Source: a virus (Duplodnaviria > Heunggongvirae > Uroviricota > Caudoviricetes). From it: DNA of 5,444 nucleotides. Shown here in pieces: positions 1-5,444 of this stretch (its first letter is position 1; each line of letters opens with the position of its first letter). The stretch is taken from IMG/VR virus record IMGVR_UViG_2693429642_000001, positions 1-5,444 of that record. One strand, 5' to 3'. Made by a program: the position numbers and the translations under genes. The notes under the pieces were generated by a model. The model made no database searches. It had not been told where the DNA came from and saw only the letters and a list, made by a program, of their open reading frames with translations.

Positions 1-296
1 CCATTGTCAGTAACTGCCCACCATTTGTTTCTCGAACAATCGTAATACCCTTCGAAGGTATCGCACTCAGTCCAGCCGTAAGACTTACCCCAACACCAAA
101 CATACTGTTTATCGTTCGGCATTCGCTCACTACAGCTTATCCAGCCATCCGTAGTTACCGGAGAATTGCCAGCCTTGCGCATGGCAATCTCCATGATTTC
201 AACCATATCCCCTGGTGGAATTTTACAATGCTGACCAGTATGCCTCTGCTGTCTGGCATATTCGAGGATGTGCTCCAGCTTGGTACGATTAATCAT
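1..296 (-). CDS. DUF551-like phage protein, partial (3' end runs past the left edge of the window)
   Basis: ATG at 296..294 overlaps the TGA stop (295..293) of the upstream gene (ATGA coupling); GGGAGA Shine-Dalgarno 6 nt upstream. Frame is open to position 3 (translation MINRTKLEHILEYARQQRHTGQHCKIPPGDMVEIMEIAMRKAGNSPVTTDGWISCSERMPNDKQYVWCWGKSYGWTECDTFEGYYDCSRNKWWAVTDNG...). The Trp-rich W-I-S-x-x-E-R-M-P segment resembles the DUF551 family common in enterobacterial prophages. Not in the ORF track because it lacks a stop inside the window. Confidence 0.5.
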   Translation of the reverse strand, partial: MINRTKLEHILEYARQQRHTGQHCKIPPGDMVEIMEIAMRKAGNSPVTTDGWISCSERMPNDKQYVWCWGKSYGWTECDTFEGYYDCSRNKWWAVTDN

Positions 297-802
297 GATT
301 TATCTCCCTTAAGCATGGCAGCGCGGCAGGCATCCTCTACGCCCTTAACTGCATCTGCGCAGTAGTTATAGCGATTGCATTCCACTAACTTCTGCTTGAG
401 ATTTTCAATTGATTGCGCGATATCAGCCTGTATTACCGGAGCTGGCGGAACGGCTGTCTGCACTCGAACGTCATCAGGTACTACCGGCTCTACTGCCAAC
501 TGACTGGCATATTTGTTAATGGTAACGATAAGCTCTTGCTCGGCCTCATCCAGACAATCACCGATACCTCGCCTGTCACCATCAAAATCATCGAAATCGG
601 CGCGAATCCTGGCAACCTCCCGGATTGCGGACAACACCTCACCAGGAATTACCGTAGAGTTGCCCGATAGTACATTCTGCTCCAGTGATGCCAGTGCAAT
701 CCGTGCCAGCTCACGAATCTCACCGCCGTCTATATCGTCAATGTCATCACGGCCAGAAATGTTAGCCAGCCATTGCAGTCGCTCTTTGGTAATAGTGATC
801 AT
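293..802 (-). CDS. hypothetical prophage protein (169 aa), acidic
   Basis: Track ORF with ATG start at 802..800 overlapping the upstream stop (ATGA); same strand and coupling as neighbours. No family recognised. N-terminal ~40 aa resemble the N-terminus of ORF 1977..2282 (see findings). Confidence 0.55.
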   Translation of the reverse strand: MITITKERLQWLANISGRDDIDDIDGGEIRELARIALASLEQNVLSGNSTVIPGEVLSAIREVARIRADFDDFDGDRRGIGDCLDEAEQELIVTINKYASQLAVEPVVPDDVRVQTAVPPAPVIQADIAQSIENLKQKLVECNRYNYCADAVKGVEDACRAAMLKGDKS

Positions 803-1314
803 GCCGCGTTTCCTTCTTCCTTATTAACAATTACACCGTCATATATTTCATTAAGGTGCCCTCTCAACTCCATGCGCCTTAATGCAGATAACATGTAATC
901 GCATTCAACCTGCTTATTCCCAGTAAATGGCTTATCGTCAGGATTACCCCAACAGCAATTACCCCTGGGCCATCCATGTACTTTCCGTACTCTTCCGTTA
1001 ACAACGTGAAGTAATCCCCAGCCGGGAGGTAAATCCTCAACTGAAATAATTTCCGGCTCACTAATAAAGAATCGCCAGTCGCCCATGCCAAGTGAGGGAT
1101 TTTTACGGAAACGCTTTTTTCTATCTGCCAACAAGTCAGCACGAGAACACTTCGCTTCTATCAGGCATGATGCTGAATTTCTGAATCCCATAGCATCTGG
1201 CTGTTCTCCGGTACTGGTTACAGCTATAAAGCGGTCATGAAAACAAACCTTGAACCCGTTGCGCTTAAGGAACTTGTACGCAATCTGACAGAGTTCGCGG
1301 TGTGTTAACGCCAT
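799..1314 (-). CDS. PD-(D/E)xK nuclease-fold protein, MmcB-family-like (171 aa)
   Basis: Start trimmed from the track start (1395) to ATG 1314..1312, which has an AAGGAG Shine-Dalgarno 6 nt upstream and sits 1 nt after the upstream TGA stop; the 1395 start has no RBS and would overlap the upstream gene by 80 nt. Protein (MALTHRELCQIAYKFLKRNGFKVCFHDRFIAVTSTGEQPDAMGF...CLIEAKCSRADL...) carries a D...E-x-K arrangement (PDA ... EAK) after a hydrophobic strand, as in PD-(D/E)xK nucleases; overall resembles 'MmcB family DNA repair protein' annotations in enterobacterial prophages (from memory). Confidence 0.55.
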   Translation of the reverse strand: MALTHRELCQIAYKFLKRNGFKVCFHDRFIAVTSTGEQPDAMGFRNSASCLIEAKCSRADLLADRKKRFRKNPSLGMGDWRFFISEPEIISVEDLPPGWGLLHVVNGRVRKVHGWPRGNCCWGNPDDKPFTGNKQVECDYMLSALRRMELRGHLNEIYDGVIVNKEEGNAA

Positions 1315-1315
1315 A

Positions 1316-1990
1316 TCACTCTCCTTTGATGCGAATGCCAGCGGCGCGTGGCACATTAACTTCCACGATGCGCACAGTTGGTTTGTACATCTCAATCGCT
1401 GTCAGCCAGTCAGCGCCAGTCATGCGCTTTTCTGCATCGCCATTAGTCCACTTAACCGGTACACCAATAGCCTTCATCGCGATTTCTATTTCCCCGGCAA
1501 TGGCGCTTTTTCCGCAACCAGTAAAACCAGAAACAACGACAAGAACTTCACCTTTGGCTGGTTTTATTTCCCGTGCTTCCAGTTCAGCAATACGCTTACT
1601 TCCATCCGAGATAACACCTTCGTAATACTCACGCTGCTCGTTGAGTTTTGATTTTGCCGACTCCAGTTGTTTTGTTAGTTCCGCAATACGGCAAACATCG
1701 TTGATACGCGTTTCCTCTAATGCGTTGATCTCATCCAGTAGTGCCAAAGCAACCTTTGGATTAAAGGCAGCAATAAATTCAGCGTTTGCGTAAGCCTGAG
1801 CATCTGTTTCAACCAGGCAGTTAACATGACATTCTGCAATCACGCCACCGGGTTCTCCTTTCCATTTTTGGCAAACAAAAACTCCTGTTAAATTGCCGTG
1901 CTGGTTAACAGATGTATGCCCTACGATGTAGCTTCCTTTAGTTGCTTTCTCTGCCTTTTCACGCAGTGCCTGATAGTTAATCTCGCTCAC
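1316..1990 (-). CDS. Ead/Ea22-like prophage protein with coiled-coil middle and a C-terminal Walker-A-like motif (224 aa)
   Basis: Track ORF 1316..2032 starts at a TTG with no RBS; a better start is GTG 1990..1988, preceded by AAGGAGG with a 6-nt spacer. N-terminal region (INYQALREKAEKATKGS...ANAEFIAAFNPKVALALLDEINALEE) resembles Ead/Ea22-like family proteins of lambdoid prophages (from memory). C-terminal part has EVLVVVSGFTGCGKSAIAG, i.e. hydrophobic strand + GxxxxGKS. Confidence 0.5.
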   Translation of the reverse strand: MSEINYQALREKAEKATKGSYIVGHTSVNQHGNLTGVFVCQKWKGEPGGVIAECHVNCLVETDAQAYANAEFIAAFNPKVALALLDEINALEETRINDVCRIAELTKQLESAKSKLNEQREYYEGVISDGSKRIAELEAREIKPAKGEVLVVVSGFTGCGKSAIAGEIEIAMKAIGVPVKWTNGDAEKRMTGADWLTAIEMYKPTVRIVEVNVPRAAGIRIKGE

Positions 1991-2282
1991 TGGCTGCCTC
2001 CTTTGCTGGGCTTTCGAATATATCAAACTCAAACAACTTAACTACGTCATCAAACAGGACATAATCGCCATCAGAATCTTCAGTCATGTCAGCGCCACAA
2101 TCCTGACCGAACGAGTCACAACCACCCATATCAAGCTCGTATCGCTTGAGTTTTGCGATATTTGATAAATTCAGCGCCAGTACAGCAAGGTCATAAACCT
2201 CGTCAGCGGTATACCCTGCACCATGCCCATACATTTCAATGCGGGATATGATTTCTTCTACACGTTGTTTTGTGATTGTCAT
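1977..2282 (-). CDS. hypothetical prophage protein (101 aa), acidic C-terminus
   Basis: ATG at 2282..2280 overlaps the TGA stop of the upstream gene (ATGA); its 3' end overlaps the next gene's GTG start by 14 nt. No family recognised. Confidence 0.5.
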   Translation of the reverse strand: MTITKQRVEEIISRIEMYGHGAGYTADEVYDLAVLALNLSNIAKLKRYELDMGGCDSFGQDCGADMTEDSDGDYVLFDDVVKLFEFDIFESPAKEAASERD

Positions 2283-2764
2283 TTTTGCTCACCTCCCTGT
2301 TCTTCCAGAAAAATACGCATAGCCTCAAGCATCTCTTCGGTGTCATACGGTGACAACTTGTCACGCAGGATGTGTTCAATGCTGTTAACGAACTTGCGGA
2401 TTGCTTTGCGTTCAATTTCAGCCAGGAAAGCGTCTGTAGCCGGGGTTTGCGGCATACCTCCGTCTGTTGCGCAGATATACGCATCAGATAGTTCATCCTG
2501 CTCGCCATCAAACACGTAGCAACTCTGTACGATAAATTTATTCAGCCCCGCACTCTCCGCTGCCAGCGCCGCGCACTTGGCCTCAAGGTTATCAATCGTG
2601 ATTCCAGCAGAACGACACTCCCGCAACGCCGTTTCTAGTTTTGATTCAAGTTCACCGAACTTACGGACAAGATATTCAGCGTTTGTTTCGTTAACCTTTA
2701 AATCTCGGGGGATGCATTTACCTTTCAGAAATCCATCCATCTCAATTAGTGACATTTGTTTCAT
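2279..2764 (-). CDS. hypothetical prophage protein (161 aa), predicted coiled-coil-rich
   Basis: ATG at 2764..2762 preceded by GGAGTGGGAAG (Shine-Dalgarno-like); long ORF on the operon strand; stop overlaps next start. No family recognised. Confidence 0.55.
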
Positions 2765-2935
2765 TTCTTCCCACTCCGCAACATCGCATTCAGATATTTG
2801 TTTTGATTTACTGATGGAAAAGAATTTCTCTTAAGCAATTCCTCTCTCGATGGCATTGGCTTTACGCGTTGGTGAATAATCATTTCTGCCGGAAGAATGC
2901 CGGGGTTGTATGCAAGTCATCTCATGGTAAATTCC

Positions 2936-3229
2936 TCAGTCATTACTGATAGCGCCATAGCGTGATCGGTAATTACGCAGGCGCGGGTCAATTTCAGGGA
3001 AGTGGGTATATGTGGCTTTGCGGAATGGTCGGATTGATGTCTGGTAAATTCGCTCGCGTTCTTCTTTCTCTGCAAGCCATATACAATGGCGAAATTCCTT
3101 TTCCTCTTTCGTTTCCTGCGGTAGCGACATTATCCGGTCGTAGTTTTTTCTGAATTTATCCAGCACCTCCGATACGGAATTGCCGGAACAGCGGCGCGCG
3201 TCGTCCGCACCATAGAGAGGCGCTGGCAT
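2936..3229 (-). CDS. hypothetical prophage protein (97 aa), highly charged
   Basis: ATG at 3229..3227 preceded by AGGAGA with a 5-nt spacer, 13 nt downstream of the ssb stop. No family recognised. Confidence 0.5.
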   Translation of the reverse strand: MPAPLYGADDARRCSGNSVSEVLDKFRKNYDRIMSLPQETKEEKEFRHCIWLAEKEERERIYQTSIRPFRKATYTHFPEIDPRLRNYRSRYGAISND

Positions 3230-3242
3230 GATTTTCTCCTGA

Positions 3243-3749
3243 TTAAATTGCGTGAATAGCGTGACGAGGGAAGGGGAGAGTTACTGGTGCAAAGGGTATA
3301 TCGTCGTCAAAATCCATCGGAGGTTCGTTGTGTTGTGCTGGTGATGATTGCTGCTGTGGCTTCTGTGATTGCCTGCTGGCTGCTTGTTGTTTGCTGTCGC
3401 CAATGCCGCCAAGCATTTGCATCACGCCATTAATTCCGACATGAACCTCGGTTGTGTAACGGTCTTGCCCTGACTGGTCTTTCCACTTTCTGGTTCTCAG
3501 CATTCCCTCGAAATAAATCTGATCACCTTTTTTCACATACTGCCCCACGACCCCAGCCAGTTTCCCGGATACAGCAACACGATACCATTCAGTCAATTCC
3601 TTTTGCTCGCCAGTATTTTTATCTCGCCATTGTTCTGACGTGGCTATTGTCAGGTTAGCGAACGCTGTACCTGATGGTGAGTATCGAACTTCCGGGTCTT
3701 GTCCTACCCGACCAAGGATAATCACCTTATTTATCCCGCGAGAACTCAT
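3243..3749 (-). CDS. ssb: single-stranded DNA-binding protein (phage-encoded SSB) with 15-residue C-terminal extension
   Basis: Protein aligns by eye with E. coli SSB: [23 protein letters not shown]..., ...TEWYRV..., ...[18 protein letters not shown]..., Gln/Pro-rich linker, acidic tail [11 protein letters not shown]. Start chosen as ATG 3749..3747 (AGGTGGAG Shine-Dalgarno 4-5 nt upstream, matches the E. coli SSB N-terminus) rather than the track's GTG at 3758. ATG overlaps the HNH gene's TGA stop (ATGA). Confidence 0.85.
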
Positions 3750-4213
3750 TTGCTCCACCTCTTGCCAGTTTTTATGTTGCTTATAATTGATTGAGATACA
3801 CCCATGTCTTTTGCTATCTTGTACTGACTCTCTTTTTCAGAGAGTCTTTTCCTGATTTCTATAACCTGCCACTCTGTTAATTTTGCACCATGATGAGCAT
3901 GACCTTTTTTTGCTCCACGATGCCTTCCTTTTGCTATCTTGTCGTCCATGTTTTCTTGCGCGCTACCTAAAAAGAGATGTTCAGGATTAACGCAGCATGG
4001 GTTATCGCATTTGTGGCAAACCATCTTCCCAGATGGGATGGGGGAGTGATAAAGCTCAAAAGCAACCCGATGAGAAAGCATTGTTACGCCAAAGGCTACA
4101 AATTTTGTGTATCCTCCTTTGTTTTTTGAATAGGTAGACTCCCAGCAACCTGTTGTTTCATTAACTTTGTAGCTGGACTCGAATCTTTTAATAATTCCGT
4201 CCAAGTGAGACAT
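3746..4213 (-). CDS. HNH endonuclease (phage homing-endonuclease-like) with C-terminal helix-turn-helix-like region
   Basis: Protein contains GCWES...GY...HRVAFELYH... and [26 protein letters not shown], the classic HNH signature; C-terminal [13 protein letters not shown]...[21 protein letters not shown] looks like an HTH. ATG 4213..4211 directly follows the annealase TAA stop. Region is visibly AT-rich compared with flanking genes. Confidence 0.8.
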
Positions 4214-4921
4214 TTATGCCGCCTGTTTTAGTTCGTTAACTCTGATGTTCATTACATGAACGCATTTAGCCTGCGCATCCTCATTGCCAGCCATTAATTG
4301 CCAGTCATGCTGATAACGTTCGATGAGTTTTTTCTTGTCAGTTTCTGTCGACGCATAATCGCTGAAGTCTTTCAGGATTTGTTCGCAGTCAACCGATGGA
4401 GATTTCTGGTTGGTATTTTCTGGTGATGGTTGATTGCCAGATGCTGGTATTGCCCATCCCGGCAGCGATGGAGGGGACCAGTAAAATCCTGTTCCATCCT
4501 TAAGTTTTTCCCTGTGCCATCCCTGCTTTTTATCGAGAGATGTTTGTGCGAAACCTTCCTCAAGGTTATACAGATACCGACCGATTCCCCACTGAACGGC
4601 AGCGCGCTTCATTGCACTGGAACGACCACCTTTTACGGCTTCTACCTGCGTGTTTTCAGCAGCATCCCATTTGGTTACCCATTCGGAATCAATCCTGATT
4701 GATATGCCGCATTCAACGCCTCCGTTGTTGGGAATATCGCGGTATTCATTGCGCCATCCTGCTTTGCCGCAAACATCGTCCAGGCGTTTCATGATTGCCC
4801 TGTTCGTGACATAAGCCAGCACCATAGCCCACACCTTTCCATCGCGTGTTTTACCGCTTTGCTGTATTCGCCATTCGATATCTTCAGGGCTGAATGGCTC
4901 ATCGAATTTATTCAAATCCAT
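4214..4921 (-). CDS. Rad52/Rad22-family single-strand annealing protein (phage recombinase, Sak-like)
   Basis: ATG 4921..4919 with AGGTGA Shine-Dalgarno 4-5 nt upstream. Protein has Rad52-family hallmarks (...GKVWAMVLAYVTNRAIMKRLDDVCGKAGWRNEY..., ...EAVKGGRSSAMKRAAVQWGIGRYLYNL...), comparable to the G-x-G...KEA.TD..KRALR.FGN core of Rad52. Adjacent to ssb, as in phage recombination modules. Confidence 0.7.
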   Translation of the reverse strand: MDLNKFDEPFSPEDIEWRIQQSGKTRDGKVWAMVLAYVTNRAIMKRLDDVCGKAGWRNEYRDIPNNGGVECGISIRIDSEWVTKWDAAENTQVEAVKGGRSSAMKRAAVQWGIGRYLYNLEEGFAQTSLDKKQGWHREKLKDGTGFYWSPPSLPGWAIPASGNQPSPENTNQKSPSVDCEQILKDFSDYASTETDKKKLIERYQHDWQLMAGNEDAQAKCVHVMNIRVNELKQAA

Positions 4922-4929
4922 AATTCACC

Positions 4930-5100
4930 TCAGAATGGACATAGCCCAAGGAAATAACGCTGATTTAATACTTCGACTCGGGACAAATTAAGGCATACCC
5001 GCATTCCTTCGCGGTCACCATTATGGCGATACCAGAGAGCTTTCTGCGTGTATATGCGTCTCTGTAACTTGCTCTCCTTCACTGTGGTTGCAAGTGACAT
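4930..5100 (-). CDS. small hypothetical ORF (56 aa) directly upstream of the annealase gene; coding status uncertain
   Basis: ATG 5100..5098 with GGAGA about 7 nt upstream; TGA stop 8 nt before the annealase RBS. The track's longer version (start 5136) begins inside the IS terminus and is rejected. Contains many rare codons (AGA, ATA, CGG, CGA, CTA), so it may be non-coding or a remnant. Confidence 0.3.
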   Translation of the reverse strand: MSLATTVKESKLQRRIYTQKALWYRHNGDREGMRVCLNLSRVEVLNQRYFLGLCPF

Positions 5101-5174
5101 GAATATCTCCTGAGGTAGCCTGAGTTTAACGGACACTCCTTCCTGAAATAGAATGGCATCAGAAGGAGCTAATA

Positions 5175-5444
5175 ATGAGCAGAAAAACCCAACGTTACTC
5201 TAAAGAGTTCAAAGCCGAAGCTGTCAGAACGGTTCTTGAAAATCAACTTTCGATCAGTGAAGGCGCTTCCCGATTATCTCTTCCTGAAGGCACTTTAGGA
5301 CAATGGGTTACCGCCGCCAGAAAAGGGCTCGGTACTCCTGGTTCCCGCACGGTGGCTGAACTGGAATCTGAAATTCTGCAACTGCGTAAGGCGTTAAATG
5401 AAGCTCGCCTTGAGCGAGATATATTAAAAAAAGCAACAGCGTAT
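5175..5444 (+). CDS. IS3-family transposase OrfA (IS600-like), partial at 3' end
   Basis: ATG 5175 with AAGGAG 6 nt upstream; translation MSRKTQRYSKEFKAEAVRTVLENQLSISEGASRLSLPEGTLGQWVTAARKGLGTPGSRTVAELESEILQLRKALNEARLERDILKKATAY has the N-terminal HTH and leucine-zipper-like region of IS3-family OrfA; matches my recollection of IS600 OrfA. Confidence 0.85.
   Translation, partial: MSRKTQRYSKEFKAEAVRTVLENQLSISEGASRLSLPEGTLGQWVTAARKGLGTPGSRTVAELESEILQLRKALNEARLERDILKKATAY
5426..5433 (+). other. putative programmed -1 ribosomal frameshift slippery site (A7G) for OrfAB transposase fusion
   Basis: Run AAAAAAAG at 5426..5433, read in frame as TTA AAA AAA GCA near the end of orfA, which is where IS3-family elements carry their A6G/A7 slippery motif. 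The downstream stimulatory structure and orfB are outside the window. Confidence 0.5.

Follow-up and report, generated by a model that had tools for sequence, protein, structure and literature searches.

IS600 is a copy-out/paste-in element of the IS3 family that measures 1264 bp and produces a 3-bp target duplication, and copies of it are commonplace in the prophages of E. coli and Shigella. In Sf6, HK97, HK75, mEpX2, P22 and the prophage of E. coli E2348/69, the early-left genes follow a common order, namely PL with its operators, an antiterminator region, various genes, cIII, kil, gene 30 and gene 29 or else arf, the recombinase gene, ssb and abc genes, ea genes, xis and int. In lambda-type operons, IS insertions are polar via Rho, and antitermination of the N type suppresses this polarity; Adhya, Gottesman and de Crombrugghe reportedly described in 1974 that transcription modified by N overcomes the polar effect of IS insertions. 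Among the closest cases to the locus considered here are the IS600 insertions between kil and erf in O26:H11-type EHEC strains (11368, 6629, 2013C-3252, RM10386, EH2252 and 98E11), where the same element entered the same gene 29/30 module of ~250 bp.

The stretch of DNA that we analyzed, referred to below as the window, is 5444 bp long and makes up a whole short-read draft contig (GCA_000941535.1, CDQY01000315.1) that ends inside an IS element. We consider it probable that the window records one recent event in which IS600 transposed into the early leftward operon (PL-type) of a P22/lambda-like prophage that is integrated beside mlrA (yehV), with the inferred consequences that are discussed below. 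As in the classical polar insertions in lambda-type operons, the IS lies between the promoter and the distal genes of a long early operon. In those classical cases, however, Rho-dependent polarity was seen to be relieved by N, whereas here the same effect is only expected, on the basis of the sequence.

Identity of the element and the empty site

The original prediction had recognized an IS600-like element of the IS3 family, and this identification can be made more precise, as window positions 5111-5444 are identical to six annotated IS600 copies in 334 of 334 nucleotides, with 0 mismatches. These copies carry the RefSeq label 'IS3-like element IS600 family transposase', and 3189 of the 5426 E. 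coli genomes contain a match. We are thus dealing with IS600 itself, an already known element in an ordinary situation. Like the full 1264-bp IS600 of E. coli and Shigella (IS3 family, IS3 group), the 334 nt in the window present a TG terminus, a left inverted repeat (IRL) and an orfA with an HTH_Tnp_1 domain. The distance from the terminus to the orfA start is equal in both, and no difference was seen in the visible part, it being noted that only the left quarter of the element (5111..5444, plus strand) is within the window and that the element runs past the window end.

Alignments of the window with the IS-free E2348/69 prophage and with the IS600 copy of an O121 strain show that phage sequence gives way to IS sequence exactly between 5110 and 5111, where the window reads GCAAGTGACATGAATATCTCC followed by TGAGGTAGCCTGAGTTTAACGG. 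The sequence from 5111 onwards is TGAGGTAGCC, with TGAGG as its first five bases and the TG terminus at 5111-5112. As other IS600 copies have different bases before TGAGG (C, G or T), the T at 5111 is a base of the IS. The terminus had been predicted at about 5111, at 10 bp from the ATG at 5100..5098, and both direct reading and the alignments place it there; alignment with IS600 thus did not shift the terminus elsewhere. The IRL occupies 5111..5137 on the plus strand, starting with TG, and is identical to the IRL of full copies. In those copies, the right end reads ACACCTCA, and alignment of its reverse complement with the IRL shows that the terminal inverted repeats are imperfect and pair as TGAGGT..CTG..CGGACACT. 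On the plus strand, orfA starts with the ATG at 5175-5177, and its first 90 codons (5175..5444) encode the helix-turn-helix N-terminal part of the transposase (PF01527, HTH_Tnp_1, E=1.1e-20). The element is therefore transcribed against the direction of the operon, as had been proposed. A programmed frameshift is annotated in identical full IS600 copies elsewhere, while the window shows the orfA part alone.

The state of the site before the insertion can be learned from an empty-site allele (L006, GCA_010686485.1) that is 100% identical to the window over positions 1-5111 and then, with no IS, continues into kil, cIII and a DUF2528 gene. The use of IS-free homologs for recovering the pre-insertion sequence, as suggested by the original prediction, thus proved feasible, with the empty site reading GGTAACGAA GGA GATATTCATG. 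The possibility that IS-free relatives would share the sequence upstream of 5100, in which case that sequence would not be IS-derived, does not apply, as this allele departs from the window after 5111. On the coding strand, the insertion point is located between GAA and GGA, so that the expected 3-bp target-site duplication is GGA, corresponding to TCC on the plus strand at 5108..5110, of which the left copy alone is visible. As the occupied and empty alleles are 100% identical and as the IS is identical to other copies, the comparison points to a very recent insertion event. The prophage had also been described as decaying and cryptic. The comparison does not support such a decay, the occupied and empty alleles being identical over 5111 nt and every ORF of the left arm being intact.

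The empty-site contig itself starts with an IS1 fragment (L006, 1-111), just upstream of the DUF2528 gene; in at least one close relative, therefore, IS1 too interrupts the early-left operon of this prophage family. Contig L010 is without IS1 at the upstream position and presents an Nmad5-domain gene there.

As short-read assembly breaks in the IS repeat, the contig stops at the window end, and it is the IS600 copy that explains this contig end. One should consider whether the junction could be an assembly artefact that joined a prophage contig to an unrelated pile of IS600 reads, especially as the window spans a whole contig of a short-read assembly and stops within a multicopy repeat. We regard this as extremely improbable, since the breakpoint matches the true IS600 terminus to the base and since the identical 60-mer spanning the junction recurs in other NCBI assemblies, in Logan contigs built from public read sets and in a genome from IMG. 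At least nine contigs, the window's own (L009) included, carry the junction and stem from distinct assemblies or read sets; L007, L008, L009, L011, L012 and L013 were collected by the exact 60-mer, L014 and L015 by alignment past 5111, with L146 in addition. Given its recurrence in at least nine contigs, the junction is not a one-off misassembly. It is a real inherited allele of a clonal group and can serve as a clean clonal marker of one lineage. In 5426 complete E. coli genomes, the identical junction was absent, and only neighbouring IS600 insertions were seen. A scan of genome contigs for the exact left junction gave 0 matches, while viral contigs yielded one further contig, which also breaks in the IS.

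In a 43.5-kb sister contig, the prophage integrase adjoins mlrA (yehV) and the yehWXY genes. For the chromosomal flank (L007, 7400-11059, with mlrA, yohO, yehW, yehX and yehY), the best identity among the 5426 complete E. coli genomes is 99.0%, an indication that the host may be a Shigella-type or otherwise unsampled Escherichia lineage. At the prophage attachment site, mlrA is shortened, with 215 aa in L007 as compared to 233 aa in L006.

The interrupted operon and its small overlapping genes

The ORFs and Pfam families of the window, taken together with kil, cIII and the DUF2528 gene of the empty-site allele, fit a lambdoid/P22-like early-left gene order on one strand. Directly downstream of the insertion, gene 29 (4930..5100, minus strand) is followed by a gene for a single-strand annealing recombinase of the Rad52/Erf type (4214..4921, minus strand; PF04098 and RefSeq relatives). 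Pfam families and ORFs of the window contig further assign, on the same strand, an HNH endonuclease (3746-4213), SSB (3243-3758) and an anti-RecBCD Abc2-like gene (2936-3229). In IS-free relatives, PL, the operators, an antiterminator (N, gene 24 or put), nutL/putL and the repressor are found upstream of cIII and kil, which would place the IS in the middle of the operon, at least 1.2 kb downstream of PL, and not at the operon start. The original prediction had considered the small ORF next to the IS as the head of the operon, whereas in relatives this ORF, gene 29, is internal, with cIII, kil and the overlapping gene 30 in front of it. Its proposal that the promoter normally driving these genes lies beyond the IS is nonetheless supported, as in IS-free relatives the operon continues via kil and cIII to PL and the repressor.

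Only some of the close relatives have the HNH endonuclease gene (3746-4213, minus strand) between rad52 and ssb, and in several relatives, whose matches begin at query base 12, ssb comes directly after rad52 without it. This patchy distribution suggests that the gene may be a mobile, homing-type cassette.

Gene 29 is an intact gene of 56 aa, homologous to Sf6 gene 29 and HK97 gp42 (phrog_1723, E=5.5e-34), and its start is the CAT at 5098-5100, namely a minus-strand ATG (5100..5098). Between this start and the IS, there is a 10-nt spacer of phage origin (5101..5110, minus strand; GAATATCTCC, as read directly against the empty site) that includes the gene 29 Shine-Dalgarno sequence. GGAG is kept at 5110..5107, and the first base of the IS restores the A of AGGAG. 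That gene 29 is a real gene follows from the conservation of its protein over diverged DNA, from the phrog_1723 match and from distant full-length homologues. In HK75 and mEpX2, the DNA of the 3' half is strongly diverged while the protein is conserved (KALWYRHNGDREGMRVCLNLSRVEVLNQRYF versus QALMYRQKGDREGVRVFLNAAKTEVLNQRYF), and over this diverged half the other frame is not conserved. Full-length homologues are found with 63% identity in Enterobacter phages and with 48% identity in Erwinia phages, and an invariant C-terminal motif, E-x-LNQ-[RK]-YFLG-x-x-PF, extends out to Erwinia phages.

The homologues of gene 29 are always located directly upstream of a phage recombinase gene, be it of the Erf, Rad52 or ATPase type, with a gap of 8-10 bp; we suspect that the ATPase recombinase beside some of them is Sak4-like. 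Such homologues were also seen at 901-1071 in both L023 and L024. The 'recombinase' label that RefSeq and PHROG give to this 56-aa protein looks like an annotation carry-over, and its role is possibly that of a recombinase accessory factor. A Pfam search with the small ORFs (genes 29 and 30) gave no matches. An assignment of gene 29 as a homologue of P22 Arf (phrog_2445) was considered and rejected, with an hhalign probability of 0.07%.

As had been noted, and as the ORF list confirms, the minus-strand frame of gene 29 stays open across the junction up to a GTG at 5136 (ORF 4930..5136, 68 aa), and it was from this frame that the cutting of a longer gene had been proposed. A gene was indeed cut, although not in this frame, the true cut ORF being in the frame of Sf6 gene 30. 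In IS-free relatives, a TAA closes the gene 29 frame 8 codons before the ATG; the frame is thus uncut, and its extension is IS sequence. For these reasons, we rejected the 68-aa ORF as a longer, cut gene, and annotators should be aware that this ORF, which reads into the IS, is an artefact and that the ORF that was cut is in the other frame.

What remains of gene 30 in the window is a 3' remnant of 29 codons and a stop (5021..5110, minus strand), assigned to Sf6 gene 30 homologues (phrog_2123) by comparison of frames, annotations and PHROG families. The intact protein is 52 aa long and matches phrog_2123 with E=6.6e-42. Comparison of the frames with those of E2348/69, Sf6, HK97, HK75 and mEpX2 shows that the gene was cut between codons 21 and 22, so that the remnant lacks the first 21 codons. 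In L006, Sf6, HK97 and HK75, the gene 30 ATG overlaps the kil stop (ATGA), and in the window the IS parts the remnant from this coupled start. What has certainly been lost is thus an intact gene 30 product, along with the coupling of its translation to kil.

Both gene 29 and gene 30 are annotated in Sf6 and in mEpX2. The two ORFs overlap by ~80 nt (4930-5110, minus strand, in the window; 1516-1765 in L016; 1502-1753 in L017). The HK97 record contains two single-base insertions by which the ORFs become one, the 83-aa gp42.1; as this fusion drops the gene 29 N-terminus that is conserved elsewhere, it may reflect either an error in sequencing or natural frameshift variation.

Gene 30 can be compared with P22 arf, the gene of an Erf recombination cofactor between kil and erf. 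Both have the same position, overlapping the kil end, and both encode a small acidic protein with the N-terminal motif [FW]SDEEFI in common. The alignment, however, includes 7 residues only (E=0.013), and the PHROG families differ (2445 versus 2123). The term 'Arf-like' for gene 30 should thus be considered a lead only, drawn from the sequence comparison.

Transcription through the element and the far side of the insertion

In the proposed event, IS600 would have landed between kil and the Rad52/Erf-type recombinase gene, inside the kil-coupled gene 30 and just upstream of the gene 29 ribosome-binding site. Between PL and the genes for recombination (gene 29, rad52, HNH, ssb and abc2, followed by the ea genes, all taken here as one module) there would then be 1.26 kb of antisense IS RNA that is not translated and is expected to be strongly polar via Rho when antitermination is absent. 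If the prophage, once induced, still makes a PL transcript with antitermination of the N or put type, the IS would be largely read through. In the repressed lysogen, where the operon would be off anyway, the insertion is probably neutral. The original prediction had considered the operon as probably silenced or rewired, and 'silenced' would hold only if the antitermination system is missing.

We also scanned the IS for signals that could change this picture. A consensus scan of the minus strand of the IS left end gave no outward promoter toward gene 29. IS3-family elements carry a weak transposase promoter in the IRL, and a promoter-like site pointing inward (TTAACG-17-TAGAAT, 5126..5154, plus strand) sits there; it is a single match at chance level in the consensus scan, assigned by position as a putative promoter. 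On the full IS600 antisense strand, two weak terminator-like hairpins were found, no more than shuffled sequences give. As the scan gave no outward promoter and as the terminators are at chance level, the distal genes would depend on read-through of 1264 nt of antisense RNA.

A terminator-like hairpin, CTCGCTCAAGGCGAG with a weak T tract after it, was also seen at 5404-5418 (minus strand), inside the antisense of orfA. In the scan, its frequency is no higher than expected by chance, but it would face transcripts arriving from PL.

The contig of the window, like its sister contigs and L146, ends within the IS, and the predicted right junction (GTACACCTCA, TCC, TTCGTTACCGATTAATTC) was not found in viral, metagenome or genome contigs. 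A search with the DUF2528 protein gave cluster representatives only, with at most 97% identity, and reached no far-side contig. The IS600 copy could thus now be a rearrangement breakpoint, with kil, cIII, the immunity region and PL deleted or moved and with the left arm left as an orphaned, promoterless remnant, whether by a change that followed the insertion or because two IS600 copies recombined. Of the 74 distinct full-length IS600 copies in an unbiased sample of IMG/VR viral contigs (L027-L145), only 28 had matching 3-bp duplications. That 62% of the full-length copies in these prophage contigs are without them implies that secondary recombination or rearrangement at IS600 copies is frequent in the sampled genomes, and it is therefore a real possibility that the IS has since caused the far side to be deleted or inverted. 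The missing right junction and the identity of the chromosomal flank, at most 99.0%, point the same way, as the latter would fit an IS-rich, Shigella-type host in which rearrangements are common. Nonetheless, the missing junction is expected anyway, as draft contigs break in IS copies and as the collections are not exhaustive. Moreover, the 100% identity between the occupied and the empty allele over 5.1 kb leaves little elapsed time, and all seven IS600 copies in six E. coli loci are simple insertions with perfect 3-bp duplications, six of them in the kil-recombinase interval and one at the cIII start. Taking both sides into account, we judge that a breakpoint at this copy is quite unlikely, and continue to favor a single, simple transposition.

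IS600 insertions between kil and the recombinase gene

Together with the window, six E. coli loci (L003, L004, L005, L020, L021 and L022) reveal seven distinct IS600 sites within 213 bp (window-equivalent positions 4993-5205) in three prophage backgrounds, with verified 3-bp duplications for six of the seven and one orientation for six of the seven. In window-equivalent positions, these sites are 4993 (duplication TGC; strain 98E11, in the inverted orientation), 5044 (TTC; O26 11368), 5064 (CTG; 6629), 5110 (TCC, predicted; the window), 5149 (TTC; 2013C-3252), 5169 (CTG; RM10386) and 5205 (GAT; EH2252, inside kil). An eighth IS600 copy, with the duplication AAT, is found at the cIII start of 98E11. 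All of the E. coli copies are 1264 bp long. The possibility that one ancestral IS, followed by adjacent deletions, produced these sites was rejected, as every copy is flanked by a perfect 3-bp duplication of its own and as the distance between erf and kil is constant.

As compared to the window, the insertions of the O26:H11-type strains are all simple, with five of the six sharing its orientation, and differ in position (4993, 5044, 5064, 5149, 5169 and 5205 versus 5110). Their prophages carry a recombinase of the ERF family rather than the Rad52 type of the window, and the host lineage and the attachment site differ as well.

Such clustering raises the question of whether the insertion is neutral. 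The kil-recombinase interval could be one where IS600 lands preferentially, or insertions in it could be favored by selection, for instance if it is of advantage to detach recombination and accessory genes from PL or to inactivate the Arf-like gene 30. We find this somewhat unlikely, although the seven sites in 213 bp, in three backgrounds, with six verified duplications and six of seven copies in the same orientation, are in its favor. The probability of at least six sites in 213 bp is ~4e-7 per window and ~0.01 when corrected for all windows, as calculated with a conservative uniform null in which all 6374 IS600 places in the database were counted as independent events. This null is nonetheless too strict, as prophage DNA tolerates insertions better than core genes do, and the orientation bias alone (seven of eight when the cIII copy is included) is not significant. 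Six of the seven sites, moreover, come from O26-type EHEC and from two prophages only, so that short-range relocation of one ancestral copy or a high, lineage-specific activity of IS600 could explain most of them. None of the 109 distinct IS600 flanks from the unbiased viral-contig sample was in the kil-recombinase interval. The target consensus reached at most 0.35 bits per position (n=35), with no informative motif, and a search of the interval for IR-like target sequences gave best matches of 7-13 nt, none of them convincing. A literature search on IS600 target preference and on an insertion cluster between kil and the recombinase gene gave nothing relevant.

In its more specific form, this possibility would describe the gene 29/30 module of ~250 bp as a recurrent, orientation-biased landing region of IS600, in which at least three independent arrivals, in different prophages, gave the seven sites, owing either to a regional target property or to selection for cutting recombination and accessory genes or the Arf-like ORF from PL in lysogens. 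We put this forward tentatively, as a rather unlikely reading.

The insertion in the window is, then, an ordinary event, with a modest side-lead in the clustering of IS600. If the clustering reflects a real target or selection effect, it would offer a small, testable example of IS elements domesticating the early operons of prophages.
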